NCBI GenBank assembly: GCA_017446025.1
Contig: JAFSRR010000091.1
Location: 8,661 to 72,660 of the forward strand
Direction: 5' to 3'
DNA length: 64,000 nucleotides
Source: Bacteroidales bacterium
GTDB taxonomy: Bacteria; Bacteroidota; Bacteroidia; Bacteroidales; UBA1402
Shown here: positions 37,748 through 57,150 of the stretch, piece after piece
How positions within the stretch are numbered: position 1 is the stretch's first letter
Layout: each line of letters begins with the position of its first letter
Notes under the pieces: generated by a model
What the model was told of the DNA's origin: nothing
Seen by the model: only the letters and a program-made list of their open reading frames with translations
Database searches by the model: none
Made by a program: the position numbers and the translations under genes

Positions 37748-37808
37748 CCGCCCCGATGCTTCGCCATCGGGGCGGAGGTCCGACTTGCCTGCCGCAGGCA
37801 GGCAAACG

Positions 37809-37873
37809 CAAACAAACAGCCTCAGACTACTTTCGAAAGCGAGCTTTCGACGCTGTCTGAGGCTGTTTGTTTG
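37809..37873 (-). other. Perfect 19-bp stem-loop directly abutting the 3' end of tRNA-Thr
   Basis: CAAACAAACAGCCTCAGAC (37809-37827) pairs with GTCTGAGGCTGTTTGTTTG (37855-37873). The 27-nt loop contains the palindrome CTTTCGAAAG. There is no U-run after it on the minus strand. Confidence 0.6.
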
Positions 37874-37947
37874 AGCCTCTTGTCGGATTCGAACCAACGA
37901 CCCCGAGATTACAAATCACGTGCTCTGGCCAACTGAGCTAAAGAGGC
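37874..37947 (-). tRNA. tRNA-Thr (anticodon TGT)
   Basis: The minus strand reads GCCTCTTTAGCTCAGTTGGCCAGAGCACGTGATTTGTAATCTCGGGGTCGTTGGTTCGAATCCGACAAGAGGCT. Acceptor GCCTCTT/AAGAGGC, anticodon loop TTTGTAA, T-loop TTCGAAT. Confidence 0.9.
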
Positions 37948-37949
37948 AG

Positions 37950-38050
37950 GTGGGAAAGCGATCTATATCGCGCCGCTACAACCAAACTACCCTTGCTGCC
38001 GTCAAGCCCTGGGGGGATTCGCAGGGAGCTGGCCGTATAGGACTTTCCCG
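37950..38050 (-). ncRNA. ffs: Candidate signal recognition particle RNA (small bacterial 4.5S-type)
   Basis: The ~100-nt minus-strand transcript folds by hand into one long imperfect hairpin. GGGAAAG at the 5' end pairs with CTTTCCC at the 3' end, and CTATA pairs with TATAG. The apical region CCAGG-GCU[UGAC]GGC-AGCA-AGGGUAG resembles the conserved SRP helix-8 AGG/AGCA symmetric loop. A -7 box lies immediately upstream. The apical loop is not a GNRA tetraloop, so the call is tentative. Confidence 0.4.
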
Positions 38051-38054
38051 GCGG

Positions 38055-38062
38055 CAAAGGTA
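38055..38062 (-). promoter_or_regulatory. -7 box (TACCTTTG on the minus strand) for the candidate SRP RNA / tRNA-Thr transcript
   Basis: The plus strand reads caaaggta, a few nt upstream of the first base of the predicted hairpin RNA. Confidence 0.45.
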
Positions 38063-42873: not shown

Positions 42874-43506
42874 TTACCATCGTAGGAAATAGGCCTGGGA
42901 AGGAATATCCTCGCGGTAAAACAGCCAGCCGCAGCCAAAGGCCTCGATGGCCAGGCTGACGCGGGGATTTCCGGCCAGTTGCTGCCAGACCTGGTGCTTG
43001 TCGCGGCTGTCGTGGATGCCCAGGACGACCATCGCGCCCCGGCGCTCCAGCCGGTCTGCAGCCACAACGGCCGAACGGGCCAGCTCATCGGCCGTCAAGG
43101 ACGGATAGAAGACCGCCAGCGCACAGGGATAGTCGCCCATGGCCGAGCGGATGGCCTGCTCGCGCACCTGGTCCATATAGATGAAAGAGGCCTTGAGGCA
43201 GCCACGTTGCAAGTACTGGGCCGTCACCCCGTCGCCCTGACCGACCTCCAGGATGTTGTCGGGCTGAAGATACAGGCTCAGGCGGAAAAGCATCCGGCTC
43301 TGCTTCCAAGGCAGGCATTGCCGGCGTACCCGGCGACTGAGCGAGGCGCGGATATCCTCCACCTCCCTGTAAGCGTAGTAGGGATAGCCTTCTTCGATGA
43401 CATCCGTGACCAAATGATAGGCAAATGGCGAATGCAACCCGTGTCCGTGTCTGTGACGCGAAACCAGGGTCAGTCGCAGGCGTTGACCGAAGCGATAGAG
43501 ATTCAT
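42874..43506 (-). CDS. Hypothetical protein, possible class I SAM-dependent methyltransferase
   Basis: ILEVGQGDGVTAQYL resembles SAM-binding motif I. A minus-strand TAATTTTG box at 43534-43541 argues for the ATG at 43506 rather than the TTG at 43536. Confidence 0.45.
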   Translation of the reverse strand: MNLYRFGQRLRLTLVSRHRHGHGLHSPFAYHLVTDVIEEGYPYYAYREVEDIRASLSRRVRRQCLPWKQSRMLFRLSLYLQPDNILEVGQGDGVTAQYLQRGCLKASFIYMDQVREQAIRSAMGDYPCALAVFYPSLTADELARSAVVAADRLERRGAMVVLGIHDSRDKHQVWQQLAGNPRVSLAIEAFGCGWLFYREDIPSQAYFLRW

Positions 43507-43547
43507 GCGCTGATGTGCCGTTATTTGGTCAGACAAAATTACTTTAT

Positions 43548-43555
43548 TATTTTTG
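43548..43555 (+). promoter_or_regulatory. -7 box TATTTTTG upstream of the corrinoid adenosyltransferase gene
   Basis: TAnnTTTG match 28 nt upstream of the ATG at 43583. Confidence 0.45.
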
Positions 43556-43582
43556 AGGCCGCAAATCTATCGGCAAACCGAC

Positions 43583-44146
43583 ATGAAAATTTACACCAAG
43601 ACTGGAGACCAGGGACAGACCAGCCTCATCGGCGGCACCCGGGTAAACAAAAACGACTTAAGAATCGAAGCCTACGGCTGCATCGACGAACTGAATGCCC
43701 AACTGGCCATGCTGCGTGAATTCCTGCAAAGCGAGCATCGGCGCGAACATTTCATAGACATCCAGAAGCATCTGTTCCGCATCAGCGGCCAACTGGCCAC
43801 CCCGGAAGACTGCACCCAGGCCCGCGTCGTCAAGAACTACCAGAAAGTGAGCAAGCTTTCCGGCAAACTCATCCAGGAATTGGAAACCGAAATCGACCTG
43901 ATCGAAGCCACCCTGCCCCCCATGAACAGTTTCGTGATTCCCGGCGGCAACAAGGCCTCGGCCCAGTGCCATATCTGCCGTACGGTCTGCCGGCGGGCCG
44001 AACGCTGCTGCGTCGCACTCCAGGCTGTCCATCCCATCGACCCGCAGATCATCGTCTATCTGAACCGCCTGTCGGACTACCTCTTTGTCGTCAGCCGGAA
44101 GCTCTGCCTGAACGAGACCGAGGAACTCTATTGGGATGGCAACTAA
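43583..44146 (+). CDS. PduO-type ATP:cob(I)alamin adenosyltransferase
   Basis: MKIYTKTGDQGQTSLIGGTRVNKNDLRIEAYGCIDELNAQL...FVIPGGN...HICRTVCRRAER...YLNRLSDYLFV. Confidence 0.85.
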   Translation: MKIYTKTGDQGQTSLIGGTRVNKNDLRIEAYGCIDELNAQLAMLREFLQSEHRREHFIDIQKHLFRISGQLATPEDCTQARVVKNYQKVSKLSGKLIQELETEIDLIEATLPPMNSFVIPGGNKASAQCHICRTVCRRAERCCVALQAVHPIDPQIIVYLNRLSDYLFVVSRKLCLNETEELYWDGN

Positions 44147-44231
44147 ACACGCTGATTATCAGATAGATAAAAACATTTATTTTCAGAGAAAAAATATCAG
44201 GAAATATATTTGTTATTCCTGATTATTATTC

Positions 44232-44239
44232 TACTTTTG
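44232..44239 (+). promoter_or_regulatory. -7 box TACTTTTG upstream of the DUF2795 gene
   Basis: TAnnTTTG match in an AT-rich spacer, about 70 nt upstream of the ATG at 44310. Confidence 0.4.
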
Positions 44240-44309
44240 CCACTGCAAAGGGGGATGTTTTTCCCGCCCTTGCATGATTCTTACAGAAGAACTATAAAAC
44301 AGCATTACC

Positions 44310-44531
44310 ATGTATTGGACCTTAGAATTGGCATCAAAACTGGAAGACGCTCCGTGGCCCGCCACCAAAGACGAACTCATCGACTACGCCATCCGTTCGG
44401 GCACGCCTCTGGAGGTTATCGAGAACCTGCAGGAGATCGAAGACGAAGGCGATATTTATGAAAGCATGGAAGACCTTTGGCCCGACTACCCCAGCAAAGA
44501 AGACTTTTTCTTCGACGAGGAAGAGTACTAG
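44310..44531 (+). CDS. DUF2795-like small acidic protein
   Basis: 73 aa: ...APWPATKDELIDYAIRSGTPLEVIENLQEIEDEG..., the typical DUF2795 core. Confidence 0.7.
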   Translation: MYWTLELASKLEDAPWPATKDELIDYAIRSGTPLEVIENLQEIEDEGDIYESMEDLWPDYPSKEDFFFDEEEY

Positions 44532-44563
44532 TCGCCACCCGCATTACTTCCAAACATCAAAAT

Positions 44564-44605
44564 AAGAGAGGTCAGGACAACGCGTCCCGGCCTCTCTTGT
44601 TTTTT
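44564..44605 (+). terminator. Rho-independent terminator between convergent genes. It is also the first terminator-like hairpin after the long minus-strand operon.
   Basis: AAGAGAGG...(GGAC-aacgc-GTCC)...CCTCTCTT followed by GTTTTTTC. Confidence 0.65.
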
Positions 44606-44619
44606 CATAAAGGAGGCTG

Positions 44620-45996
44620 TCAGGATTTCAACTGGTTTTCAAAATCCTTGAGCGACTTCAATGCCTGAGGACAGAGGAAGAGGATGGCGACCACCGTTCC
44701 CCAGGCCATCAGACCGACCCCGATATCGCCCAGTTTCCAGACCAGGTCGGCCTCACGGACAGCGCCAAAGATCACCATGGCAATCATCACTGCCTGAAAC
44801 ACCCGGATAACCAGTTTTTCTGCTTTGGGATACCGGTTCCTGAACAAATAGATGATGCTGGATTCCGAATAGAAATAATATGCCAGGAGGGTGCTGAAAG
44901 TGAAAAACACCATCGCAACTGAGATGAACTTGCCGCCAAAACCGTTGAATACGGTATCTACGGCCGCCTGGGTATAACCGACGTAATTATTGCCCAATTC
45001 GGGAGCCTGGGCCAGCAACAACTCGCCCGTAGAGCCATCGATGATGTTGTAGGTGCCCGACACCAGGACCATCAGCGCAGTGGCAGTACAGACCAGCAGC
45101 GTATCGACATAGACCGAGAAAGCCTGGGCCAAGCCCTGACGGGCCGGATGATCGACCGCTGCGGCCGCCGAGACTATGGCGCCGGTGCCCTGGCCGGCTT
45201 CGTTGGAAAAGATGCCCCGCTTGACCCCCATGGCTATGGTGGTCCCCAGGATGCCGCCGCAGACGGGATGGAAACCGAACGCTCCATTGATGATGGAAGC
45301 AAAGACGGCCGGGATCTCCTGAATATGGTGTCCGATGATTACCAACGACATCAGGATATAGCCGACGGCCATGAGGGGAGTGATGAGGGAAGCCACCCAG
45401 GCTATCCGCTTGATTCCGCCCACCACGACCAGGCCAAGCAAAAAAGCCATCATCAGGCCCGATGCCAGGGGGTTGACAAGGAATCCATTCTTGACGGCCA
45501 TCGATGCGCCGTTGGCCTGAACAGTGGTGAGAAACAAGCCGCAACCGATGACGGTCACCACGGCAAAGGCAATGCCAAGGCTTTTCCTGCCCAAGCCCCG
45601 CTCAATAAAGCTGAACGGGCCTCCCCGGAATCCACTCTCATGCGGGAACTTGTAGATTTGGGCCAGGGTGGATTCGACAAAGGCGGTGGAGGCGCCCAAA
45701 AAAGCCACCACCCACATCCAGAAGACAGCGCCCGGCCCCCCGAAGGCGATGGCGGTGGCCACGCCCACGATATTGCCTGTGCCGACGCGGCCCGAAAGGG
45801 CGATACAGAAGGCTTCGAACGAGGAAATGCCCTGCTCGTCGGATTTCTTACCGAAGAGGGAACGGACCATCATGGGCAGCCGCCTGACCTGGACCATTCG
45901 GGTGCGGACCGAAAAATACAGTCCGGCGGCCAGCAACAACACTACCAGCGCAGGATTCCAGACAATGTCGTTGACCAGTGAAATGACTCTTTCCAT
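44620..45996 (-). CDS. Alanine/glycine:cation symporter (AGCS family)
   Basis: MERVISLVNDIVWNPALVVLLLAAGLYFSVRT...GISSFEAFCIALSGRVGTGNIVGVATAI..GGPGAVFWMW... Position 46014 is a TTG, so the ATG at 45996 is preferred. Confidence 0.85.
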   Translation of the reverse strand: MERVISLVNDIVWNPALVVLLLAAGLYFSVRTRMVQVRRLPMMVRSLFGKKSDEQGISSFEAFCIALSGRVGTGNIVGVATAIAFGGPGAVFWMWVVAFLGASTAFVESTLAQIYKFPHESGFRGGPFSFIERGLGRKSLGIAFAVVTVIGCGLFLTTVQANGASMAVKNGFLVNPLASGLMMAFLLGLVVVGGIKRIAWVASLITPLMAVGYILMSLVIIGHHIQEIPAVFASIINGAFGFHPVCGGILGTTIAMGVKRGIFSNEAGQGTGAIVSAAAAVDHPARQGLAQAFSVYVDTLLVCTATALMVLVSGTYNIIDGSTGELLLAQAPELGNNYVGYTQAAVDTVFNGFGGKFISVAMVFFTFSTLLAYYFYSESSIIYLFRNRYPKAEKLVIRVFQAVMIAMVIFGAVREADLVWKLGDIGVGLMAWGTVVAILFLCPQALKSLKDFENQLKS

Positions 45997-46014
45997 CAGA
46001 CCGGATGGAAACAA

Positions 46015-47193
46015 TTAAGCAAGGCTGCTGTCAAGCAGGTTTTTGAGAGCTGCTTTGTCGAGATGCTGTCCGATGAACACCAGCTTGATCATACGGTCGC
46101 CATAGACCGGATCCCACTCCTCGCGCAATTTGCGGTCACGGGCCAGCATTTCCTGGATCTCGTCGTCGCGCATGGTGGCATACCACAGCCCGGCGTCGCG
46201 CAGGATTTTCTGGCGGCCGGCCTGCTCGAAGAGCCAGCATTTGCCCGTGTCGTCCGAGAAATAGCACAGGCCCTTGCAGCGGATGATGTTTTTGGGCCAG
46301 CGACGTCCCAGCAGGTCGTCGAACTTGTTCATGTCCAGGGGCCGGCGGTCGGTATAGACGTAGGTGTCGATGCCATACTCCAGGGCTTCGCCTTCTTCCT
46401 CGTCTTCGTCTTCCTCGCCCTCGATGGCGGCAATCCAGGCAGCCGAGGTGGCCACCCGTTCGAAATCGAACAGACCGGTATAAATGATTTCATCCAAATC
46501 GATGTTGCCGTAGTCGCAAGCCAGGATCCTGGCGCCGGGGTTGATGCTGGCCACAATACTGTGCAGCTTGCCCAGTTCATCGGCCGTCAGTTCGGAAGCC
46601 TTGTTGAGCAGGATGATGTTGCAGAATTCTATTTGTTCGATCACCAGGCGTTCCAGGTCGTCGTCTTCGATGCCTTCTCGATGGAGTGCATCGCCTCCTT
46701 CAAACTCGTCCTTCATGCGCAGGGCGTCCACGATGGTGGTGATGCAATCGACATACGGCAGGTTGTCCATGGCATATTGCGGCCCGAGTTGCGGGATGGT
46801 GCTGATGGTCTGGGCGATGGGGGCCGGCTCGCAGATGCCGCTGGCCTCAATGACGATATAGTCGAAACGGGCCGAAGAGGTCAGCTCGGAGAGTTGGGCC
46901 ACCAGGTCCATTTTGAGCGTGCAGCAGATGCAGCCGTTCTGAAGGGCGACCAGGCTGTCGTCGGTCTGTCCGACGATACCGCCCTTCTCTATGAGGTCGG
47001 CATCGATGTTCACCTCGCCGATGTCATTGACTATCACGGCAAACTTGATGCCTTTTTTGTTGGACAGGATACGGTTGAGCAGCGTGGTTTTGCCGCTGCC
47101 CAGATAACCGGTCAGCAAGAGGACCGGGATTTGTTTCTTTTCTAATTGTATATTCATTGTCAATTGGGATGATACAGTCGTCTGACTTGTCAT
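46015..47193 (-). CDS. COG0523-family GTPase (CobW/ZigA/YeiR-like metallochaperone)
   Basis: Walker A LLTGYLGSGKTTLLNRIL, metal-binding GCICCTL, an acidic insert EGEEDEDEEEGE, and a CobW C-terminal domain. The ATG overlaps the upstream stop (ATGA). An alternative ATG lies at 47157. Confidence 0.85.
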   Translation of the reverse strand: MTSQTTVSSQLTMNIQLEKKQIPVLLLTGYLGSGKTTLLNRILSNKKGIKFAVIVNDIGEVNIDADLIEKGGIVGQTDDSLVALQNGCICCTLKMDLVAQLSELTSSARFDYIVIEASGICEPAPIAQTISTIPQLGPQYAMDNLPYVDCITTIVDALRMKDEFEGGDALHREGIEDDDLERLVIEQIEFCNIILLNKASELTADELGKLHSIVASINPGARILACDYGNIDLDEIIYTGLFDFERVATSAAWIAAIEGEEDEDEEEGEALEYGIDTYVYTDRRPLDMNKFDDLLGRRWPKNIIRCKGLCYFSDDTGKCWLFEQAGRQKILRDAGLWYATMRDDEIQEMLARDRKLREEWDPVYGDRMIKLVFIGQHLDKAALKNLLDSSLA

Positions 47194-48680
47194 TCGTCAG
47201 TCTTTTCGCATAGCAGGATGACCAGATGGTCGCCTACTTTCAGCCGCATGCTGCCGTGCGGCGACAGGAATTCGTCGCCCCGTCTGACCATGATGACCCG
47301 GATGCCGTGCGGCAGGCTCAGTTCGCGCAAGGTACGGCCCAGTTCAAGGTCTTCTTCAGTGACGACATGATCGGTCAGCATTCCTATTTCCTCGGGGACC
47401 TCGATGCCATAGGTCTGGGCCTTTCCCAGTTCCACATCATCCACCTTCAGCAGTCTGGCCACAGCCGGCAGGCTCATTCCCTGTAAAAGTTGCGACAAGA
47501 GGGTGACGACAAAGACGATATTGAATATTTCCACAGAGCCCGGCAGCCCCGCCACAAGCGGGCACATGGCAAACAGGATCGGGCCGGCCCCCTTGATGCC
47601 CACCCAGGAAACCATGGCCTTGGCCCTGACCGGCAGACGGCGATAGGGAAGCAGACTGAGGAACACACTGAGCGGTCGGGCGACGAAAATCATGAACACA
47701 CCTATCATCAGGGCGGGGACGATGATCGACGGGAACTGCGAGGGACGGACCAGCAAGCCCAGCATGAGGAACATCAGCAGCTGGACCAGCCACGTGATGC
47801 CGTCCATAAACTTGAGGATTTCCTTCTTGTGCGGGATCTTGGCTTGATTGCCGATAATGATGGCCGTCACATATAGGGCCAGCAGTCCGTTGCCGTGCAA
47901 AAATGAGGCTGCGCCATTGGTGAAGATGCCTATGCTCAGTATCATCACGGCATACAGAGGACTTCCTTCCAGGCGGATGTGACACAACAGCCACTTGGCG
48001 GCATAGCCCATCCCGACACCTATCACCAAACCGACCACAATCTGCAGCAGAAGCAGCAGGACGCCCGTCAGGGCAAAGGCCGTGGAATCTTTGCCTTCCT
48101 GCACGAATTTCAACAGATTGACCATGAAAATGGTCATGATGTAGGCGATGGAGTCGTTGCTGCCCGACTCTATTTCCAGCATCGGACCCAGATTGTATTT
48201 GAGATGCATCCGCCGGCTGCGCAAAACGGAAAACACCGAAGCCGAGTCGGTCGAAGACATCACCACGGCCACCGTCAGGCAGCCGGCCATGCTTGCCCAC
48301 AGACCGCCCAGCATCCGGGCTGTAAAGTGATAGATGAAGCCGCCCGTCAGGAAGGCCGTCAGCAATACTCCCAGCGTTGAGAGCAGCGCTCCTTTGCCCA
48401 TGACAGGCCGGGATTCCTTCATGTCTGTTTCCAGTCCGCCGGTCAGCAGGATGACCGTCATGGCGAAATGACCGATAAACTCAGCTATCTCGTAATTCTC
48501 GAAATGGATTCCCATTCCGTCCGGCCCGGCCAGCATACCGACCGCCACAAAGAGCAACAATGTCGGGACACCGAAACGATAGCCTATCTTCGAAACCAGC
48601 AATGCAGCGAAGACAAGCACCGAGACAAGCAGGAGCAAGTTGTCGGAGAGCAGGGAAAAAGACAAAACAGACAACAGCAT
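47190..48680 (-). CDS. K+/H+ (cation/proton) antiporter, CPA1 NhaP2/CvrA-like, with a C-terminal TrkA-C domain
   Basis: 496 aa with about 12 TM segments, followed by ...VVTEEDLELGRTLRELSLPHGIRVIMVRRGDEFLSPHGSMRLKVGDHLVIL (RCK_C/TrkA-C). Confidence 0.8.
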   Translation of the reverse strand: MLLSVLSFSLLSDNLLLLVSVLVFAALLVSKIGYRFGVPTLLLFVAVGMLAGPDGMGIHFENYEIAEFIGHFAMTVILLTGGLETDMKESRPVMGKGALLSTLGVLLTAFLTGGFIYHFTARMLGGLWASMAGCLTVAVVMSSTDSASVFSVLRSRRMHLKYNLGPMLEIESGSNDSIAYIMTIFMVNLLKFVQEGKDSTAFALTGVLLLLLQIVVGLVIGVGMGYAAKWLLCHIRLEGSPLYAVMILSIGIFTNGAASFLHGNGLLALYVTAIIIGNQAKIPHKKEILKFMDGITWLVQLLMFLMLGLLVRPSQFPSIIVPALMIGVFMIFVARPLSVFLSLLPYRRLPVRAKAMVSWVGIKGAGPILFAMCPLVAGLPGSVEIFNIVFVVTLLSQLLQGMSLPAVARLLKVDDVELGKAQTYGIEVPEEIGMLTDHVVTEEDLELGRTLRELSLPHGIRVIMVRRGDEFLSPHGSMRLKVGDHLVILLCEKTDE

Positions 48681-48697
48681 ATAGTATCAGCTTGCAG

Positions 48698-49006
48698 CTA
48701 TGCTTTTTCAACTTCGAAGAGATTGAGGAAACCGGTCATCATGAAGACCTTGCGGATATCCTCGTTCATATTGCGGATGATCACCCTGCCGCCTCTGGCC
48801 GATGCCGCCTTGCGAATGGTCAGGAAAATCCTGAGACCGGAACTGCTGATATACTCCATCTGTGAGCAATCCAGCACGACGGTCAAATCGGCATGGTCGA
48901 TCAGGGGTTGTACCTGACGCGATACCTCCAGGGAGGCAGGAGTGTCCAGACGGCCGATGAACTGGGCCGTTATCACCTTCTCTACTTGATTGATTTTTAC
49001 TTCCAT
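48698..49006 (-). CDS. STAS-domain anti-sigma-factor antagonist-like protein (SpoIIAA/RsbV type)
   Basis: 102 aa: ...VVLDCSQMEYISSSGLRIFLTIRKAA...GGRVIIRNMNEDIRKVFMMTGFLNLFEV. The conserved phosphorylatable Ser context (YISSSGL) is present. Confidence 0.85.
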   Translation of the reverse strand: MEVKINQVEKVITAQFIGRLDTPASLEVSRQVQPLIDHADLTVVLDCSQMEYISSSGLRIFLTIRKAASARGGRVIIRNMNEDIRKVFMMTGFLNLFEVEKA

Positions 49007-49007
49007 A

Positions 49008-51206
49008 TTATTGAATCCTTTTGGTCATTGACAAAATGTTCTTGGCTTCGGCCCGTTCGTAACGGACATCGTCCATAATATTGCGCACCAGATAGATACC
49101 CAGTCCACCGATGGCCCGTTCCTCGACACCCAAAGTGGTATCGACCTCCGGTGCCTGAGTCGGATCGAAGGGCTTGCCGCTGTCGGTGATGATGAAATCC
49201 AGGCGGTCGTGACGGATGATGGCCTCAATGTCGACCAGTCCGTCGGATCCTTCGGGATAGGCATACATAATCACGTTGGAAACCGCTTCTTCGAGTGCCA
49301 GGTTCAGGCTCATGGCCAGTGACTGGTCCAAGTGGATTTCATCGGCAATGGCCTCTATGAAACCAGCCAACTGCGGTATCTGCTGAATATCGTTGTGCAG
49401 GATCAGATGACGTTCCGCCCTGTCGGGCAACGACTCGTTCATATAGCGGAGATAAAGCATTGTCAAATCATCGCTCTGCGGCGCGTCACCGACAAATTCC
49501 ATCACAGACTGCGAAACAGCCTTGAGTTGGGATTCGGCCAATGAATCGCTCCGAAGCAGGGCTATCAGCCGGTCGTCACCGAAGAGTTCATGCCCGGCGT
49601 TCTCGGCCTCGGTCAGGCCGTCGGTGTAGCAGAACAGTCCGTCCTGGCATGCCAGGTCTGTTTCCTGCTCCTGGAAAGACGTGCCCGGCATGACACCCAG
49701 CGGCAGGTTGGACACAACGGGCAATTCACGCACTCCCTGGCCTGTCACCAGCAAGGGAGCGTTGTGACCGGCGTTGCAATAGCGCAGATGGCCGTTGCCC
49801 AGATCCAGCACACCGGTGAAGAAAGTGACAAACATGTTGCTTTCGTTCATGTCGGACATGGAGTCGTTCATGATGGTCACGATGCGTTGCGGGCTCTTCT
49901 CGTGGGCCGAAACCGTACGGAACAGACGGCGCGTGACGGCCATCACCAGAGAAGCAGGCACACCCTTGCCCGACACATCGCCGATGCAGAAATAGAGTTT
50001 TTCCTCGCGGATATAGAAATCATAGAGGTCGCCGCCCACCTCCTTGGCCGGGACGATGGAGGCATACATATCGATATCCTTGCGTTCGGGGAAGGGCGGG
50101 AAAATCTTGGGAATCATCGACATCTGTATACCGCGACCGATTTTCAGCTCGCTTTCCATACGCTCCTTGTTCTCGGACAGTTTTTTGAACTTCAGCTGAC
50201 TCTTGATTGAAGAACGCAGGATAAGTATCAGCATGAGGATACCCACCAGCTGGAGTACTTTGACCATCATGCCGATACGACGGATACCGCCGTAAATCTC
50301 GCTGTCGGGGATGACAATGGACATCGACCAGCCGGTCTTCTCTACCGGGGCATAGAAGACATAATTGGTCGTTTTCCGGTACTTCAGGCTGAGATTGCCC
50401 GTCTCACCAGCCATCATCGACCGGTTGAGCTCGTCGAAAACGTCCCCACCTTCCATGTCGGCGGCCACTTCCTGGGCCCGTCGCGACATGATGAGCGACT
50501 CGACCGGGCAGACCATGATCTGGCCCGTACGGCTGATCATCATGCTGAAAGCGTTGGGATAGACTTCCACATTGCCTACCAGATCGGTGAGCCAGTCGAG
50601 CGAGATGTCGGCCGTCAATACGGCGGCCAGCCGGCCTTTGTAGTCCCACAAGGGCATCGAATAGGTGGTCATCAGGATATCACCGCCCCCTTCGTCCACA
50701 TAGGGTTCCGACCAATAGCCGGCCTGCAGTTCCAAGGGCTTGACGAACCATTCCTGGGAAGGGTAATCGTAGGCCTCGGTGGCCAGTTGGCGGTAATGCA
50801 CTTCATTCTCACCGGGCATCTGGTAGGAATAGGGCGAGAAAAGCGGCCGGGAAGGAAGATAGCCGGGCACCAGGGCGATGGTCGAACCGACCACCACGGG
50901 GTTTTCGCACACAATGCGCCGGGTCACTGCCACCATGCTATCGGGATAGCCCAGACTCCACTGGGCAATCCAGACACTGTTTCGAACTGCCGTCTCGGCT
51001 TCGTCTATCACCGCAGATATTTTCAAGCGCGTGGATTCCAACTGGCTTTGCGCCCTGAGGGAAGCCTCCTCGCGGATGCCTTTCTGAGAAAAATAATACT
51101 GGACCAGCGCTGTCGCCTCCAGGGTGACGATGGCCACCACGATAAGCAGCAGACCGGTTTTGGAAGCCTGACGGAGGAAAGATTTGTTTTCTATTCCCTT
51201 CTTCAT
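49008..51206 (-). CDS. Membrane sensor fusion: periplasmic Cache-like domain, PP2C (SpoIIE) phosphatase, and RsbW/SpoIIAB-type HATPase serine kinase
   Basis: TM1 (LLLIVVAIVTLEATALV), a ~270-aa extracytoplasmic region with YWSEPYVDEGGGDILMTTYSMPLWD (Cache-like), and TM2 (VLQLVGILMLILIL). The PP2C core shows VGGDLYDF...FCIGDVSGKGVPASL...FFTGVLD...NAGHN...TDGLTEA...QSDDLTML. The C-terminal LALEEAVSNVIMYAY...ITDSGKPFDP...GGLGIYLVRNIMD is a GHKL kinase domain. Confidence 0.85.
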   Translation of the reverse strand: MKKGIENKSFLRQASKTGLLLIVVAIVTLEATALVQYYFSQKGIREEASLRAQSQLESTRLKISAVIDEAETAVRNSVWIAQWSLGYPDSMVAVTRRIVCENPVVVGSTIALVPGYLPSRPLFSPYSYQMPGENEVHYRQLATEAYDYPSQEWFVKPLELQAGYWSEPYVDEGGGDILMTTYSMPLWDYKGRLAAVLTADISLDWLTDLVGNVEVYPNAFSMMISRTGQIMVCPVESLIMSRRAQEVAADMEGGDVFDELNRSMMAGETGNLSLKYRKTTNYVFYAPVEKTGWSMSIVIPDSEIYGGIRRIGMMVKVLQLVGILMLILILRSSIKSQLKFKKLSENKERMESELKIGRGIQMSMIPKIFPPFPERKDIDMYASIVPAKEVGGDLYDFYIREEKLYFCIGDVSGKGVPASLVMAVTRRLFRTVSAHEKSPQRIVTIMNDSMSDMNESNMFVTFFTGVLDLGNGHLRYCNAGHNAPLLVTGQGVRELPVVSNLPLGVMPGTSFQEQETDLACQDGLFCYTDGLTEAENAGHELFGDDRLIALLRSDSLAESQLKAVSQSVMEFVGDAPQSDDLTMLYLRYMNESLPDRAERHLILHNDIQQIPQLAGFIEAIADEIHLDQSLAMSLNLALEEAVSNVIMYAYPEGSDGLVDIEAIIRHDRLDFIITDSGKPFDPTQAPEVDTTLGVEERAIGGLGIYLVRNIMDDVRYERAEAKNILSMTKRIQ

Positions 51207-52033
51207 ATAATAGTATTTAAAGCTACCCGGAGTTCCGGCATCGGACGACGGGTATCACGTTCTACCATGATGGTTTTCAGACCGGCATAGGGCCGGACTT
51301 CTTCTTCTATGTCCTTTAGCGGACGGCCAGGGCCGAAATACTCGGCGGCAAAAGCCTCCCAGAAAGAGGCAGCCGTCGCATTGTCCATATGGAATGCTTC
51401 GCGAGTGTAATCGGGGGTATTGAGCCGGCCGGTCATATAGACCATGCCGATATCGAAAAGCGGACAACCGTGGCAAAAGTCGCCCAGATCGATAAAATAG
51501 CGCTTGTCTCCGGCAAAGACGGCATTGCCGAAATGCAAGTCGCCGTGCAGGGCGGTCTCTGCCTCGGGCACTTCGTCGATGAAGCGCAGCAATTTGTCTT
51601 TTTCCCCAACGGTGAAAAAAGGATTGTCGACCAGCATCCGGGCATAGCGGTCTTTTTCGGATTCAAACTGGGAGGTATCGACCCGGGTGGCATGCAGTTG
51701 ACGGCACATGGCAGCAAATGAGGCGGCATATTCACCCATCCGGGAGGGGTCTTCGCTGACCGCCCGGGCAAAAGATTTTTTGCCGATTATCCGCTGGAAG
51801 CGTATGCCGTAGCGGCCGTCCGCTGTCACCACATAGTTGCCCGGCTCAGGGGTGGAAATGCCGGCATCATAGACTTTGCGCGCCATCAATAGCTCGTTGA
51901 GCGGCTGATGTGTCCGGTCCGGGAAATAGAGTTTGAGCATGATCCCCGGGGCGGAGCGATGGTAGTAGCTCTCGCCGTTGGATCCTGCACCGGCCAGCAC
52001 ATAATCGTTGATGTCTATCCGCTCGGCTTCCAT
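51203..52033 (-). CDS. APH-fold phosphotransferase (aminoglycoside/choline-kinase-like small-molecule kinase family)
   Basis: MEAERIDINDYVLAGAGSNGESYY..., the catalytic loop LHGDLHFGNAVF, and the metal-binding FIDLGDF. The stop overlaps the downstream ATG (ATGA). The start is taken at the ATG at 52033. Confidence 0.7.
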   Translation of the reverse strand: MEAERIDINDYVLAGAGSNGESYYHRSAPGIMLKLYFPDRTHQPLNELLMARKVYDAGISTPEPGNYVVTADGRYGIRFQRIIGKKSFARAVSEDPSRMGEYAASFAAMCRQLHATRVDTSQFESEKDRYARMLVDNPFFTVGEKDKLLRFIDEVPEAETALHGDLHFGNAVFAGDKRYFIDLGDFCHGCPLFDIGMVYMTGRLNTPDYTREAFHMDNATAASFWEAFAAEYFGPGRPLKDIEEEVRPYAGLKTIMVERDTRRPMPELRVALNTII

Positions 52034-52035
52034 AA

Positions 52036-52605
52036 CTAGTCTCGTTTGCCAAAAACCTCGTCGATCAGGCGCTGGAACTCCTGAAATGCAAAAGTGTCCT
52101 CCAATTCGCGCAATGAGTCGGCCAGGCCGCGGTAATGCCATTCATGCTCAGCTTTGTCCCTGACATGGAAAATCTGCCACACATTGTCGCCCTGCAACGC
52201 ATAGTCGCGGGCGATGGCCCGCATATTGGACAGTTTGTCGCCCAGGGCCACCATCTTGACTTCACGGGAAGCCTTGGCCAGCTTGTCGATGGCGGCCTGC
52301 TTGCGCAGGTGCCAGTTTTCCCAATAGTTGCAGTTCTCCACCACAATGTCGCTTTCGGCGACCACCAGATCGGCAATGCGTTCGCCAAAGACAACGGACA
52401 ACTCTTCTTCTGTGACGCGGGTATCCTCCAACACGTCGTGCAGGGCGGCCGCGGCCAACAGTTCCTGGTCGGATGTCATGGTCGAGACAATCGACACGGC
52501 CTCCATGGGATGGACGATGTAGGGGAAACCTTTGCCCCGGCGCTCAGCGCCGGAGTGGGCCCGGACCGCAAAAACGATGGCCAGATCCAGCAATTTTGTA
52601 TTCAT
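52036..52605 (-). CDS. HD-domain small alarmone hydrolase (SpoT/Mesh1-type (p)ppGpp hydrolase domain only)
   Basis: ...AHSGAERRGKGFPYIVHPMEAVSIVS...LLAAAALHDVLEDT...VVAESD...KMVALGDKLSNMR are canonical RelA/SpoT hydrolase-domain motifs (HP...V, HDxxEDT). Position 52617 is a GTG, so the ATG at 52605 is preferred. Confidence 0.8.
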   Translation of the reverse strand: MNTKLLDLAIVFAVRAHSGAERRGKGFPYIVHPMEAVSIVSTMTSDQELLAAAALHDVLEDTRVTEEELSVVFGERIADLVVAESDIVVENCNYWENWHLRKQAAIDKLAKASREVKMVALGDKLSNMRAIARDYALQGDNVWQIFHVRDKAEHEWHYRGLADSLRELEDTFAFQEFQRLIDEVFGKRD

Positions 52606-52636
52606 CTTCTTTTTCACCGCGATATAGTTGTATCAG

Positions 52637-53701
52637 CTATTCGGAAGCATGCATGAAAGGCAGGTCCTTGGTCTGTTCGACCAGAAAAGCCGCCATCTCC
52701 TCATTCATTTCCGAAGGTCCGTTGAGGATGTCCAGCATATATTTCAAGCCGCCCCGGCCGCCGCCGTTGCGCAGGATGAAGGCCGTGCACAGGTGCTGGG
52801 GGCCGATCGACGAAGAAACGATGTCCAGGTCGGTCAGGCCGATCTGGTAGCAGGCAATCTGATAGGCTGCTTCCGAGTTGTCCTTGATCAATTTGGCGAT
52901 ATCACCCAGGGTCTTACAGCCCAATCCTTTGAATACAGGCAGATAGCCCATCAGTGAAACCTCTTGTATTTCGGCCTGGTTGACCGCAGCGATACGCTTG
53001 TTGAGTTTGGCAAAGGGATTCAGCGACAGATAATTGCGGAAGGAATCGCCATCGAGCAGCACTTCGTCCAGATTGCCCGATGCCACCAGGGCCTGCACCC
53101 GGCGGCGATAGTCGTTGAGTTCAGTACGGATACGGCTGAACTGTTCGTCGGCCATCTCCAGCATACCGGCCAGGCGGCTCATGTTGCGCAGGTACTCGCG
53201 CGGCACTTCGACACCCGATTTATAGCCTGTGTCGTGGTTAAGATTGGCCCAGGCATGCTGCAGGACCGTACGCATCTGGATTTCGAAACGATAGGGGAAA
53301 CCCTTCTTGCGACAGATATAGTGCAGCGACATGTAGCCGAAAGAATCGATCTCGTGGATTTTTCGCTTGTCGACCGACTCATCCCAATCCACTTCGAACA
53401 GACGTTCGACGGCCGAAGCCACCTTGTCGACATCGTCGATGTAGAATGTAATCACACGCAATCCGAGGATGTCGGTGATATCGGCCAGGCTGCTGTATTT
53501 GCTACCCTTCAACTCCAATTTGCCGGCCAGGGAGCCTTCGGCCTTGACCCGTGCCTCGACCGAAGCCACAATGATGCCGGCCCCATCGAGCGTGGAGCGC
53601 AACAGGTCTAGCACTTCGTTTTTAACACTCTCAAACTGAGGAAGATGCTGACGATATTCTTCCAGAATTGCCTCGCAATGGGCGTCCAGTGTCCTTGTCA
53701 T
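52637..53701 (-). CDS. Small alarmone synthetase (RelA/SpoT-type nucleotide pyrophosphokinase domain) with a ~150-aa C-terminal extension of unknown function
   Basis: Synthetase motifs RVKAEGSLAGKLELKG, DILGLRVITFY, GYMSLHYI and EIQMRTVLQHAWANLNHD are present. Residues ~205-354 match no motif I recognise. Position 53707 is a TTG; an ATG lies at 53701. Confidence 0.85.
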   Translation of the reverse strand: MTRTLDAHCEAILEEYRQHLPQFESVKNEVLDLLRSTLDGAGIIVASVEARVKAEGSLAGKLELKGSKYSSLADITDILGLRVITFYIDDVDKVASAVERLFEVDWDESVDKRKIHEIDSFGYMSLHYICRKKGFPYRFEIQMRTVLQHAWANLNHDTGYKSGVEVPREYLRNMSRLAGMLEMADEQFSRIRTELNDYRRRVQALVASGNLDEVLLDGDSFRNYLSLNPFAKLNKRIAAVNQAEIQEVSLMGYLPVFKGLGCKTLGDIAKLIKDNSEAAYQIACYQIGLTDLDIVSSSIGPQHLCTAFILRNGGGRGGLKYMLDILNGPSEMNEEMAAFLVEQTKDLPFMHASE

Positions 53702-53724
53702 ATCCAATCGGCTGAGTTAGCTTG

Positions 53725-53732
53725 CAAAGCTA
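53725..53732 (-). promoter_or_regulatory. -7 box (TAGCTTTG on the minus strand) at the head of the SAS operon
   Basis: The plus strand reads caaagcta, about 24 nt upstream of the ATG at 53701. It lies within a near-palindrome TTAGCTTGCAAAGCTAA. Confidence 0.45.
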
Positions 53733-53774
53733 ATGTTTTTCTCCCATCCGTCAAAGCCGAACAAAAGGATTTCG

Positions 53775-53782
53775 TACATTTG
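53775..53782 (+). promoter_or_regulatory. -7 box TACATTTG for the divergent HD-domain gene
   Basis: TAnnTTTG match 35 nt upstream of the ATG at 53817. Confidence 0.45.
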
Positions 53783-53816
53783 CAGACCGGTCGCGTCGCA
53801 GCCGCCGGCACAGCTT

Positions 53817-54797
53817 ATGAATCTCTGGTCTGTCTATCACCCTGAAATCCCCGGTTTTGTCCGGGAGATTGCCGCCACCCCGCCCTTGCGGCGGCTCATG
53901 GAGGTGGGCATGAACTGCGGCTGTGAATATACCTCCTTCTCCCGTTTTGCCCATCTGGAGCCTTATTCGCGCTACGACCACAGCCTGGGCTGTGCACTGA
54001 TAGTCTGGCATTTCAGCGGCGATAAACGACAAGCGGCAGCTGCCTTGCTGCACGATATCGCCACGCCGGCCTTTGCCCATGTGATCGATTTCCTCAACGG
54101 CGACCACGACCGGCAGGAATCGACCGAAGCGGGTGCCGCCGACATCATCCAGGCCTGCGCCGAGCTCATGGAAGTACTCGGCCGCCACGGCCTCAGCCTC
54201 GACGAGGTCTGCGACTACCATCGCTACCCCCTGGCCGACAACGACACGCCCCGGCTCTCGTCCGACCGCCTGGAATACTCGCTGGGCAACATCGTCAACT
54301 ACCGGATAGCGACCCGCCAGGAAGCGGCCTCCTGGTACGGGCACCTGGTGACCGGCCTCAACGAAGAGGGCATCGAAGAGCTCATGTTTGACGACACAGC
54401 CGCCGCCCTGGCTTTCGCCTCGGGCGCCCTCAAGGCCTCGCGTATCTACGTAGCCGACGAAGACCGTTTCGCCATGCAGATGTTGGCCGAACTGCTCAAA
54501 AAACACATCGGGCGGGGTGTGCTGTCTAAAGAAGACCTCTACACCACCGAACCGCAAGTCATCGGCCTGCTGGAGAAAGACGCCCGGGCGGCCGCCGACT
54601 GGCAGCGCTTCCGGGCCTACCGGCGCATGGTCCCTGCCGCCGGACAGCCCCAGGCCCGACGGATTTCGGCCAAGAAACGACACATCGACCCCTATGTCAA
54701 GGGAAAGGGGCGTCTCTCTGTTATCTCACCCTTCTATTCCGCCCAACTGCGCGACTTCCTGGCACTCGATTTCGGCCAGCCCGTTTGCGGGGAATAA
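53817..54797 (+). CDS. HD-domain metal-dependent phosphohydrolase (function unknown)
   Basis: ...YSRYDHSLGCALIVWHF...AAALLHDIATPAFAHVIDF... shows the H...HD...D pattern of the HD superfamily. The start is chosen at the ATG at 53817, downstream of the -7 box. Confidence 0.7.
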   Translation: MNLWSVYHPEIPGFVREIAATPPLRRLMEVGMNCGCEYTSFSRFAHLEPYSRYDHSLGCALIVWHFSGDKRQAAAALLHDIATPAFAHVIDFLNGDHDRQESTEAGAADIIQACAELMEVLGRHGLSLDEVCDYHRYPLADNDTPRLSSDRLEYSLGNIVNYRIATRQEAASWYGHLVTGLNEEGIEELMFDDTAAALAFASGALKASRIYVADEDRFAMQMLAELLKKHIGRGVLSKEDLYTTEPQVIGLLEKDARAAADWQRFRAYRRMVPAAGQPQARRISAKKRHIDPYVKGKGRLSVISPFYSAQLRDFLALDFGQPVCGE

Positions 54798-54812
54798 TAT
54801 CTACTGCCAGAA

Positions 54813-54850
54813 CATAAAAAAAAGAGAGCCGCCTTGAGGGCAGCTCTCTT
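54813..54850 (-). terminator. Rho-independent terminator for the small OM protein gene. It probably also stops the convergent HD gene.
   Basis: The minus strand reads AAGAGAGCTGCC-ctcaa-GGCGGCTCTCTT followed by TTTTTTTTATG. Confidence 0.65.
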
Positions 54851-54876
54851 GGGATACTAAATTCCTTGTCTCAGGC

Positions 54877-55320
54877 TTAGAAGCGATAGCGGACACCCAG
54901 GCCGAAGCTGGCAGCAGCAAAGCCACCATCCAGGAAATAGAAAGTAGGTCTCCAGTCGAGCGACAGGGTCAGAGGAATCTGGAAGTTGTATTCCATGCCG
55001 ATCATGCCGGAAGCACCTACATCCAGACCGGACTTGGTCGTACCGTTGTCGTCATAGTTGTAGAAACCGACGGTGGCACCGGGACCTGCATAGAAATTGA
55101 AATCACCTTCGCTGGCGAAAACAAAATTGTAGATACCCGTGGCATAGAAACCATGGTTCAGGAAGAGACCTCCGTCAAATTCCAGGAAATTCTCACCCAT
55201 CGAGTGCTGATAAGATACTTCTGCACCATAACCGATACGAAGACCGATGGCACGGGGCTGGGCCATCATCACAGCTGTCAGACCGAAAACGGCGACAAGA
55301 ACAAGTAATGCTTTTTTCAT
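54877..55320 (-). CDS. Small outer-membrane beta-barrel protein (OmpW/OmpA-barrel-like, 8-stranded type)
   Basis: Signal peptide MKKALLVLVAVFGLTAVMMAQ, alternating Gly/Tyr/Phe strands, and a C-terminal ...FGLGVRYRF. Confidence 0.7.
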   Translation of the reverse strand: MKKALLVLVAVFGLTAVMMAQPRAIGLRIGYGAEVSYQHSMGENFLEFDGGLFLNHGFYATGIYNFVFASEGDFNFYAGPGATVGFYNYDDNGTTKSGLDVGASGMIGMEYNFQIPLTLSLDWRPTFYFLDGGFAAASFGLGVRYRF

Positions 55321-55467
55321 AACTGATTAATTTAAAAAAGTGATACAATCATAGTCTTTCCTCTATAGCTAACGATGCCTTTTGGGGCACCGGCAAGTCT
55401 ATATCCAAGGCGAAGGTCGGAATTATTCGGGAAAAAGCCAAACATTATCCCCAAAAATATCTGTCGG

Positions 55468-57150
55468 CTAAACATTCCTGGCCACGCCCATACGGGCCTC
55501 CACCACATTGATGATGTAGTCGCCTGTCTTTTCGCACTCGTTGATCAGGTCCATGTAGACCGTGCTGCTCTGGTAGTCGTAGTTGTGGTTGTCAAGATCC
55601 TGTATATTCTTTTGTTTCAACTCGTTCCGACACTCGTTGATAGCCTTCTCGGCTGCTTCCGAATAGGCGAACTTGTAATCCTCGCGACGGCCCGACAAGG
55701 CGTTGTTCATCAGCGTAGCCGCCTGATCGACCAAATCGAGCAACTGGCTGAAACCAGCCTCCTGGTCGGCAGTGAAAACAGCTTCGTTTTCACGTTTGCG
55801 CTTCAGGATGCGGGCCAGGTTGAAGCATCCGTCGCCGATACTCTCCAACTCGCCGATCTCACGCAACATGGAACGGATCTTGCCTTTGGAGTCGTCACTG
55901 AGATGAGCGTCACCAACCGCTCCCAGATAACGTCCGATTTCATCTTCCATGTTATCACTGATGTCCTCGTATTTGGCAATGCGTTCAAAGAGTTTTTGAA
56001 AGGCTGTATCGTCTTTCGAATCCTTCAGGTCGGCAACCATTCCTATCATTCGCTGCATACGTTCGCCAAATACAGCGATTTCCTTCTGGGCCTGCAGAAT
56101 GGATATTTCCGGTGTCTTCATCAAACCGCCACGGATAAACTTGAGTCGGGCTTCTTCGTCTTCATCGCTCTTCTTGGGCTTGATCAGGTGGCAGACCAGT
56201 TTTTCTATCTGCGGTATGAACCAAATCAGTATCAATGTGTTGGTCACATTGAACGCGGTGTGGAAGGTAGCCAGGGCAAACGTCAACTGGGCCGGCGTCT
56301 GGCTTTCGGCGGCAGGATCCATGCCCACGACGTTGCAGACCATTCTGACAAAAGGGTAGAACATACACAGGATCCATAATACGCCGAACACATTGAACAG
56401 CAAGTGAGCCAAGGCCGCCCGGCGCGCCTGGGTGTTGGCCGACAAGGCGGCGATATTGGCGGTGAGCGTCGTACCGATGTTTTCACCCATGACCAGGGCG
56501 ATACCCTGATAGATGGTAATGACACCCGTTGAGCACAGCACCATGGTGATGGCCATCAGCGCCGCCGACGACTGCACGGCAAAAGTGAGTACCGTGCCGA
56601 TGAGCAGGAACAGTAGGATGGTCAGGTAATTGCCAGAATCAAAAGAGGCGAAGAAATCGACCACGGCCTGATTACTGGCCAAATCCATTTCAAGGCCGGT
56701 GGCCCGGAGCAGTCCCAGGGCAAACAACAGGAAGGAGAGGCCAAACAGGAAATCACCGAAATAGCGGTGTTTGCCGGTCTGTATCAAAACGATGCCCACC
56801 AGGAAAGTGATCCAGACGACATTGGTGATATTAAAAGAAAAGCCCGCCGACATGATCCAGGCGGACAGCGTGGTACCGATATTGGCCCCCATGATGACGG
56901 AGATAGCTTGCGCGAGCGTCAGCAATGCAGCGTTGACAAAGGAAACCGTCATGACGGTCGTGGCGGCGGACGACTGTACGGCCACGGTAACCAGGGCGCC
57001 TGTTGCCACACCGGTAAAACGATTGGTTGTCATCGCGCCGAGCAAATGGCGCAATTGCGGGCCGGCCATTTTCTGCAGGGCTTCGCTCATGACTTTCATA
57101 CCATAGATCAACAGGGCGATGGATCCCAGCAGTTTCAAAGCTATCAGCAT
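55468..57150 (-). CDS. Na/Pi cotransporter family protein with a C-terminal PhoU-like domain
   Basis: LLGSIALLIYGMKVMSEALQKMAG...GVATGALVTVAVQSSAATTVMTVSFVNA... is duplicated as (...AVQSSAALMAITMVL...), followed by PhoU-like helical repeats. Confidence 0.85.
   Translation of the reverse strand: MLIALKLLGSIALLIYGMKVMSEALQKMAGPQLRHLLGAMTTNRFTGVATGALVTVAVQSSAATTVMTVSFVNAALLTLAQAISVIMGANIGTTLSAWIMSAGFSFNITNVVWITFLVGIVLIQTGKHRYFGDFLFGLSFLLFALGLLRATGLEMDLASNQAVVDFFASFDSGNYLTILLFLLIGTVLTFAVQSSAALMAITMVLCSTGVITIYQGIALVMGENIGTTLTANIAALSANTQARRAALAHLLFNVFGVLWILCMFYPFVRMVCNVVGMDPAAESQTPAQLTFALATFHTAFNVTNTLILIWFIPQIEKLVCHLIKPKKSDEDEEARLKFIRGGLMKTPEISILQAQKEIAVFGERMQRMIGMVADLKDSKDDTAFQKLFERIAKYEDISDNMEDEIGRYLGAVGDAHLSDDSKGKIRSMLREIGELESIGDGCFNLARILKRKRENEAVFTADQEAGFSQLLDLVDQAATLMNNALSGRREDYKFAYSEAAEKAINECRNELKQKNIQDLDNHNYDYQSSTVYMDLINECEKTGDYIINVVEARMGVARNV

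Follow-up and report, generated by a model that had tools for sequence, protein, structure and literature searches.

What does a partner switch control in a bacterium whose phylum, Bacteroidota, is not known to have group-3 sigma factors? The question is raised by a block of eight minus-strand genes (positions 44620-53732) in a 64,000-nt stretch of DNA from a Bacteroidales bacterium (assembly GCA_017446025.1, contig JAFSRR010000091.1), referred to here as the window. Five of these genes encode a small alarmone synthetase (SAS), a small alarmone hydrolase (SAH), an APH-fold kinase, a membrane sensor that joins a dCache domain to a PP2C phosphatase and an RsbW-type kinase, and a STAS-domain protein; a K+/H+ antiporter (KHA in the gene orders below), a COG0523 GTPase and an AGCS symporter follow. 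From the comparison of related loci we conclude that the five genes probably form a partner-switching module that has the alarmone synthetase, and not a sigma factor, as its output. Domain calls with Pfam and NCBIfam confirmed every family that an earlier, sequence-only reading of this DNA had assigned to the block.

Conservation of a five-gene core

An alignment of SAS was used to scan one genome per GTDB species, which confirmed at least 439 relatives, and the best 80 of these were taken as the locus set, each with 10-kb flanks. The closest relatives are metagenome-assembled rumen Bacteroidales genomes; together with a small SRP RNA of Bacteroidales type elsewhere in the window, they establish the order to which this DNA belongs. 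Gene neighbourhoods were counted twice over the 80 loci, once by mapping the window proteins and once, independently, by clustering all open reading frames (ORFs). Only six families recur around SAS, with SAS itself present in 80 loci, SAH in 73, the APH kinase in 72, STAS in 63, the sensor fusion in 62 and the antiporter in about 30. The next genuine gene family occurs in 14 of the 80, the clusters ranked between being opposite-strand shadow ORFs of core genes. As many contigs are truncated, further counts were confined to the 44 loci that extend for at least 7 kb on either side of SAS. All five core genes (SAS, SAH, APH, dCache-PP2C-RsbW sensor and STAS) are found together in 39 of these 44 complete loci (SAH in 42, APH kinase in 42, PP2C in 40, RsbW in 41 and STAS in 41), and the antiporter is found in 22.

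The core stays linked through at least six gene orders, which include cyclic permutations and the insertion of the switch genes between SAS and SAH. Among them are SAS-SAH-APH-PP2C-STAS, SAS-SAH-APH-KHA-PP2C-STAS, PP2C-KHA-STAS-SAS-SAH-APH, SAS-PP2C-KHA-STAS-SAH-APH and APH-PP2C-KHA-STAS-SAS-SAH. That the genes remain neighbours after repeated rearrangement argues for selection to keep them together, and not merely for an inherited order. Recurrence of the SAS-SAH-APH-PP2C/RsbW-STAS core, which the sequence-only reading had named as a check on its idea of a single circuit, is seen in most of the 80 Bacteroidales species loci and, without the APH kinase, in the second clade described below. The counts support the five-gene core as a real, conserved functional unit and, as far as gene context can tell, its five products are functionally linked.

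Fusion proteins and minimal operons

Four kinds of natural fusion protein (Table 1) join members of the module to one another: RsbW to SAS, APH to SAS, SAH to APH, and SAS to SAH. The RsbW-SAS fusions, in which the kinase domain forms the N-terminus, fall into three distinct clusters from two data sources (NCBI and JGI) and are 81-82% identical to P0123. The RsbW-type domain of P0123 is in turn 49% identical (E = 2e-38) to the kinase domain of the window sensor. Some loci carry minimal operons that consist of genes for RsbW, STAS and SAS, and another encodes PP2C, RsbW, STAS, SAS and SAH as separate proteins; in these operons SAS stands at the position that sigB or sigF takes in Bacillus. Judged by these fusions and operons, SAS is the component most tightly tied to RsbW and STAS. 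One further protein (P0179, 422 aa) is dihydroorotase-like in its N-terminal half and passes in mid-helix into the second half of SAS; it is a probable assembly or recombination chimera and was not used as evidence.

A second clade with Shine-Dalgarno-like motifs

More distant SAS relatives, 36-40% identical, lie on contigs with a low guanine-plus-cytosine (GC) content. The two clades were told apart by GC content and Shine-Dalgarno usage, a Shine-Dalgarno-like motif being found for 31 of 44 cluster genes in the second clade as against 2 of 78 in Bacteroidales-type loci. Two gene orders occur in this clade. Both begin with a protein of about 318 residues followed by SAS; one continues with SAH, in some cases a transporter, a PP2C-RsbW fusion and STAS, and the other with a fusion of SAH to an amidohydrolase, then PP2C-RsbW and STAS. 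On this gene content, the association of SAS and SAH with the switch spans a second phylum.

The protein of about 318 residues has a C-terminal membrane anchor, always precedes SAS in this clade and has no match in Pfam or NCBIfam. It was considered as a diverged APH kinase, an idea that was rejected when a profile search gave nothing (E > 0.1). The second clade is without the APH kinase, and no antiporter was detected in its loci; both genes are thus additions on the Bacteroidales side. The SAH-fused amidohydrolase is guanine-deaminase-like (TIGR02967, E = 1e-94), with a score of 317 bits that lies below the NCBIfam cutoff of 375. Another locus, L090, carries a SAH-containing ORF of 608 aa.

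The alarmone synthetase

Pfam recognises a RelA_SpoT domain in SAS (PF04607, residues 53-165, E = 4e-19) and no second domain. A synthetase domain without HD, TGS or ACT domains is the architecture of small alarmone synthetases, and RelP and RelQ are the best matches both by sequence in the PDB and by fold with Foldseek, where RelQ, RelP and Rel come first. An alignment of 60 homologues shows no variation in the motifs RVK..SL..K, DITDI.G.R, GY.SLHY, EIQMRT and HDTGYK, which align with the catalytic motifs of RelP and RelQ (R.K...S...K; D..G.R; GY.S.H; E.Q.RT; H...Y). SAS is predicted to transfer pyrophosphate from ATP to the 3'-OH of GTP, GDP or GMP. Its substrate and product are most likely guanine-based, the latter being (p)ppGpp or pGpp; a guanine nucleotide is favoured because RelP and RelQ are the closest relatives and because SAH in the second clade is fused to a guanine-deaminase-like domain.

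Identity to SAS is 74-90% among the 120 best database matches, the C-terminal half included, and 70-90% across the best 80 species genomes of the at least 439 with a relative. A library-wide search (clusters at 50% identity, E < 1e-30) returned 925 clusters, most of them of 350-365 residues and covering both halves of the protein. The 150-residue C-terminal domain is conserved across clades and, when modelled alone with AlphaFold2, gave a predicted local distance difference test (pLDDT) value of 93.6 and a predicted template modelling (pTM) score of 0.88. Foldseek found no significant match for this domain in the PDB (best E = 3, TM-score ≤0.30), which leaves a sigma-factor-like or STAS-like fold unsupported; with the whole SAS model, only the synthetase domain was matched. 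Prevotella-type orthologues (L083-L085, about 50% identical) retain the C-terminal domain intact. Their genes follow a large gene of the FAD-binding/oxidase type (Pfam FAD_binding_4 and FAD-oxidase_C).

Hydrolase and APH-fold kinase

SAH is a stand-alone HD_4 domain (Pfam PF13328, E = 1e-19). Its closest solved relative is Lmo0812 (4yf1, E = 1e-20), with matches also to Mesh1 and to the hydrolase domains of Rel, and its motifs HD, ED and DKLSNMR are conserved in 74 sequences. The kinase matches Pfam APH (PF01636, E = 6e-15) and scores 228 bits with TIGR02172, for which the cutoff is 228.2. The motifs HGDLHxGN, corresponding to the H.D....N catalytic loop, and IDLGDF, with the downstream metal-binding Asp, are conserved. 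Against the PDB, a profile of its orthologues found nothing significant and the single sequence found only methylthioribose kinase (E = 0.024). With their catalytic motifs intact, SAH, the APH kinase and the PP2C domain of the sensor look catalytically competent.

About ten Bacteroidales loci have a cytidylate-kinase-like gene (PF13189, E = 7e-46) between SAS and SAH (Table 1). By its gene context, the module thereby has a second enzyme of nucleotide-kinase-like type at its side.

Sensor and STAS protein

The sensor is laid out as a transmembrane segment, a periplasmic dCache domain (MCP-like_PDC_1/dCache_1, residues 93-297), a second transmembrane segment, a PP2C phosphatase domain (SpoIIE, 401-587) and an RsbW-type serine kinase domain (HATPase_c_2, 605-729). 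The PP2C motifs GDVSGKG, NAGH, TDG and DD.T are conserved among orthologues, and in the window sequence the N, G1 and G2 boxes of the kinase domain can be made out by eye. The PP2C domain also shows a weak match to SiaA (NF038263, E = 6e-10). Amino-acid sensing by the dCache domain was considered and dropped, as the window sequence reads, by eye, YDYPSQEWF where amino-acid-sensing dCache domains have a motif with conserved arginines. A separate arrangement was observed at L126, L158 and L166, where the dCache-PP2C part is a protein on its own and another protein, of 456 aa, joins the RsbW-type kinase to a DAGK/YegS-like lipid-kinase or NAD-kinase-like domain.

The STAS protein is a single domain of the anti-sigma-antagonist type (Pfam STAS, E = 2e-15; 72 bits with TIGR00377, for which the cutoff is 53). 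At least 97% of 65 sequences keep its motif YISSSGLR, in which the predicted phospho-serine lies; the phosphorylated residue is presumably Ser55, as the counterpart of SpoIIAA Ser58. PP2C phosphatase, HATPase_c_2 kinase and single-domain STAS protein are encoded together in 40-41 of the 44 complete loci. No sigma-factor gene recurs in the 80 GTDB loci, as follows from the lack of any recurring neighbour beyond the six families, and none appears in the Pfam gene lists of L081-L089, which points to a non-canonical output for the partner switch.

A predicted route from sensor to synthetase

In the mechanism that we propose, a periplasmic signal bound by the dCache domain would shift the balance between the PP2C and kinase activities and so set the phosphorylation state of the STAS protein at the predicted Ser55. 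Unphosphorylated STAS would then turn SAS on in one of two ways. It could displace SAS from the RsbW domain, in the manner of RsbV and sigma-B, or bind SAS directly, probably through the C-terminal domain, which is how HsbA, BgrV and SiaC deal with diguanylate cyclases. The nucleotide produced would most likely be guanine-based, (p)ppGpp or pGpp, and SAH would reset the signal. The APH kinase may serve this nucleotide pathway or else act on the protein complex itself, and the antiporter with its RCK_C domain, where present, is a plausible effector.

Several observations weigh against this proposal. Synthetase genes without partners show that SAS can exist without adjacent switch genes: the Prevotella-type orthologues are solitary, with no SAH, APH, PP2C or STAS gene within 10 kb, and close relatives at L030, L053 and L071 also carry SAS without the cluster. 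The RsbW-SAS fusion genes, too, are solitary, with no STAS or PP2C gene nearby. The second clade has no APH kinase, an unrelated protein preceding SAS there instead, and the guanine-deaminase match falls short of its cutoff. The version in which RsbW sequesters SAS is without structural support, because the C-terminal domain has no likeness to a sigma factor or to any solved structure. The product of SAS, the phosphorylation of STAS, the place of the APH kinase in the module and the contacts between the proteins are all features that we infer from sequence.

Alternative readings of the cluster

A related possibility is that SAS, SAH and the APH kinase, for which APH-SAS and SAH-APH fusions are known, make and destroy a messenger other than plain (p)ppGpp, for example a further phosphorylated guanine nucleotide. 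The partner switch would gate its synthesis through a new regulatory fold in the C-terminal domain of SAS, and the RCK_C antiporter would be its direct receptor. We regard this as unlikely.

The switch might instead mainly control the antiporter, with STAS docking on the transporter as in SulP carriers and SAS-SAH-APH being a separate nucleotide module that is often adjacent. The antiporter is of the NhaP2/CvrA type (499 bits with NF003716, for which the cutoff is 355; Pfam Na_H_Exchanger, and TrkA_C/RCK_C at the C-terminus) and is the sixth commonest gene of the neighbourhood. Its gene lies beside that of the sensor or of STAS in most loci that have it, in many of them between the two or directly after STAS. 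A switch dedicated to the antiporter nevertheless fails, as half of the loci lack the transporter (just 22 of the 44 complete ones have it); none was detected among the loci of the Shine-Dalgarno clade, and the RsbW-SAS fusions and minimal RsbW-STAS-SAS operons connect switch and synthetase without a transporter. We consider this reading improbable. What stands of the link to K+/H+ exchange in the sequence-only reading is a frequent accessory, not a universal member.

That reading had gone further and drawn all eight genes into one circuit, coupling alarmone signalling to metal handling by the COG0523 protein, alanine/glycine uptake by the AGCS symporter and K+/H+ exchange. The genome at hand does present eight co-oriented genes with gaps of at most 31 nt, two overlaps, one -7 box upstream and one terminator downstream, and in L002, the closest relative on a long contig, a COG0523 gene again follows the antiporter. 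The COG0523 family, however, occurs in that one locus of the 80, and the AGCS family also in one, L080, where it lies on the opposite strand; neither clusters with the core in the analysis of ORF families. With a single recurrence each, the two genes are best taken as local, lineage-specific passengers. The loci give no support for extending the circuit to metal and amino-acid transport, and a circuit of all eight genes is distinctly improbable.

The pair of SAS and SAH could also be read, like FaRel/ATfaRel, as a toxSAS module for toxin-antitoxin or anti-phage action, in which the synthetase would poison the cell through (pp)pApp or tRNA pyrophosphorylation, with the other genes as triggers or regulators. 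A validated toxSAS system of type IV likewise has a SAS gene followed directly by a SAH gene (PMC7229694), PADLOC gave a domain-level match of SAS alone to the candidate system PDC-S33 (E = 3.5e-15), and CapRel is among the Foldseek matches of SAS, at rank 36. The best matches are nonetheless RelP and RelQ and not the toxSAS families, and the regulator of the cluster is a periplasmic small-molecule sensor. The conservation of SAS (70-90% identity across 80 species genomes, with relatives in at least 439) suggests vertically inherited housekeeping signalling and not patchy defence islands. No close relative of SAS was found in 2.9 million viral contigs, where seven matches were 35-43% identical, and no mobile-element genes recur near the cluster in the 80 loci. 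A toxSAS function is accordingly rated as highly improbable.

Tightly packed runs of genes in one direction are a common feature of Bacteroidales genomes, but fortuitous adjacency of unrelated packed operons is effectively refuted by linkage that holds through at least six gene orders, two phyla and four kinds of fusion protein.

Relation to known systems

The module that we consider probable, with SAS as the output of the switch, has its nearest parallels in partner switches that control diguanylate cyclases, namely SiaABC-SiaD and HptB-HsbR-HsbA-HsbD of Pseudomonas aeruginosa and BgrSTUWV-BgrR of Sinorhizobium meliloti (PMC8457831). As there, a PP2C phosphatase and an RsbW-type kinase would set the phosphorylation of a small protein, STAS or STAS-like, through which a nucleotide-messenger enzyme is controlled, with no sigma factor involved. 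The differences are that the presumed output is a RelA/SpoT-type synthetase and not a GGDEF cyclase, that the module includes a dedicated hydrolase and an APH kinase, that a periplasmic dCache sensor is part of the same protein as phosphatase and kinase, and that natural fusions join the kinase domain itself to the output enzyme.

With RsbU-RsbV-RsbW-sigma-B and SpoIIE-SpoIIAA-SpoIIAB-sigma-F of Bacillus subtilis the cluster shares a SpoIIE-type PP2C domain, a HATPase_c_2 kinase and a STAS protein with the serine motif, and the minimal RsbW-STAS-SAS operons mirror the layout rsbV-rsbW-sigB. Unlike in the Bacillus systems, no sigma factor was detected in the cluster, SAS takes the output position, and kinase and phosphatase reside on one membrane protein.

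SypE of Vibrio fischeri carries both an RsbW-type kinase and a PP2C phosphatase. It is reported to be a serine kinase that acts on the STAS protein SypA (PMC10120452, PMC4517449). The likeness lies in one protein acting on a single-domain STAS whose target is not a sigma factor; SypE, by contrast, is cytoplasmic with a receiver domain where the input here is a periplasmic dCache domain, and SypA concerns biofilm polysaccharide where the predicted target here is a nucleotide synthetase.

RelQ (SAS1/YjbM) and RelP (SAS2/YwaC) of Firmicutes are the best matches of the N-terminal domain, in which all synthetase motifs are present. Identity in the Foldseek alignments is nevertheless just 20-26%, and the window SAS differs in its extra 150-residue C-terminal domain and in its genomic partners. 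FaRel-ATfaRel of Cellulomonas marina resembles the locus in having a SAS gene followed by a gene for a SAH that would degrade its product (PMC7229694); unlike FaRel-ATfaRel, the present family is highly conserved, chromosomal, apparently vertically inherited, embedded in a sensor switch and not phage-associated.

The sequence-only reading knew of no earlier account of such a combination, and the literature searched agrees: neither it nor, within it, the main survey of SAS gene neighbourhoods reports STAS, anti-sigma or partner-switch proteins beside SAS genes, most subscription journals lying outside the coverage. Beyond transcription and allostery, we know of little on how the environment switches small alarmone synthetases, and the proposed module, if real, would be a direct, sensor-driven, post-translational route for doing so. 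It would also explain the role of partner-switching proteins in Bacteroidota, which have many such genes and no sigma-B or sigma-F. Hundreds of gut and rumen species carry the module, as does a second phylum, and the natural fusions single out pairs of its proteins as candidates for joint study. It brings, as new material, a confidently modelled domain without structural relative and an APH-type kinase newly linked to alarmone metabolism.

Transcription and surroundings of the block

Eight packed minus-strand genes with particular junctions had been described in the sequence-only reading, and all eight ORFs and every junction proved correct (Table 1).

Table 1. Positions of the features discussed. 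L-numbers are loci examined and P-numbers are protein clusters of the library; positions are those of the window or of the locus named.
Feature	Source	Positions	Strand	Remarks
SAS	window	52637-53701	-	then 31-nt gap
SAS N-terminal RelA/SpoT-type synthetase domain	window	53090-53701	-	residues 1 to ~204
SAS C-terminal helical domain and stop codon	window	52637-53089	-	residues 205-354; no Pfam model
SAH	window	52036-52605	-	then 2-nt gap
APH-fold kinase	window	51203-52033	-	ATGA overlap with sensor gene
Sensor fusion (dCache-PP2C-RsbW)	window	49008-51206	-	then 1-nt gap
STAS	window	48698-49006	-	then 17-nt gap
K+/H+ antiporter	window	47190-48680	-	ATGA overlap with COG0523 gene
COG0523 GTPase	window	46015-47193	-	then 18-nt gap
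AGCS symporter	window	44620-45996	-	terminator downstream
Bacteroidetes-type -7 promoter box TAGCTTTG	window	53725-53732	-	~24 nt upstream of SAS ATG
Intrinsic-terminator hairpin and U-rich tail	window	44564-44605	-	between convergent genes
Small acidic 73-residue ORF	window	44310-44531	+	converges on AGCS gene
Divergent HD-domain gene	window	53733-54797	+	between outer-membrane beta-barrel gene and SAS
-7 box within divergent HD-domain gene	window	53775-53782	+	
PduO-type cobalamin adenosyltransferase gene	window	43553-44146	+	~2 kb from COG0523 gene
Bacteroidales small SRP RNA and adjoining tRNA genes	window	37520-38056	-	SRP RNA: RF04183, 111 bits
RsbW-SAS fusion	P0123, P0271, P0272			521 aa; kinase at SAS N-terminus
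APH-SAS fusion	L129			657 aa
SAH-APH fusion	L126, L131, L158, L166			
SAS-SAH fusion	P0152, P0390-P0396			eight clusters
Minimal operon RsbW-STAS-SAS	L155, L162			RsbW of 158 aa
PP2C-RsbW-STAS-SAS-SAH	L154			separate proteins
SAS-SAH-APH-RsbW-STAS	L164			
RsbW-type kinase fused to DAGK/YegS-like domain	L126	10422-11792		also L158, L166
Cytidylate-kinase-like gene	L002	11077-11709		also L003, L028, L041, L045, L047, L058, L069
~318-residue protein	L086	1658-2614		C-terminal membrane anchor
~318-residue protein	L087	7029-7985		C-terminal membrane anchor
~318-residue protein	L088	7014-7976		C-terminal membrane anchor
SAH-amidohydrolase fusion	L088	9073-10956		also L089

The claim of a single -7 box also held, TAGCTTTG being the sole TAnnTTTG on the minus strand of the block. 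About one such match is expected by chance per 9 kb of one strand, so that the lack of internal boxes is weak evidence. A box 10-40 nt upstream of the SAS start is, however, present in 49 of the 80 related loci as against 3.7% of random 126-nt windows, and because of this shared position TAGCTTTG is very probably a real promoter. TAnnTTTG occurs 32 times in the whole window, where 13.6 are expected (0 of 100 shuffles reached 32), and several of the matches fall in those intergenic stretches that were inspected; excess and placement together fit genuine Bacteroidetes -7 promoter boxes.

At the other end of the block, the terminator-like hairpin was confirmed as a strong fold (-23.9 kcal/mol, z = -4.8) with a U-rich tail after it. 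Terminator-like matches within the block are at the level of chance (13 against 11.4 expected, positions 43000-55500, both strands), in keeping with the earlier description of the block as free of internal terminators. One shared RNA for the eight genes is plausible and consistent with their spacing, the promoter and the terminator. The small acidic ORF that converges on the AGCS gene shares the hairpin, which may be a bidirectional terminator for the two.

Of the last two genes of the block, the COG0523 protein has the domains cobW (PF02492) and CobW_C (PF07683), with the CXCC motif appearing as GCICC in the translation. It scores 337 bits with the ZigA model against a cutoff of 600 and is for that reason not a ZigA equivalog. 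The nearby PduO-type gene suggests that this GTPase might concern cobalamin or cobalt rather than zinc. The AGCS symporter matches Pfam Na_Ala_symp with E = 1e-141.

Upstream of SAS, the divergent gene has weak Pfam HD/HD_4 matches (E ~0.002). It is present in L002 and absent from the closest relative, L001, in which SAS directly adjoins the beta-barrel gene, and the plus-strand -7 box listed in Table 1 suggests that it starts at a later ATG, near 53817. Elsewhere in the window, the gene for the small signal recognition particle (SRP) RNA of Bacteroidales adjoins tRNA-Thr(TGT) and tRNA-Asp(GTC).

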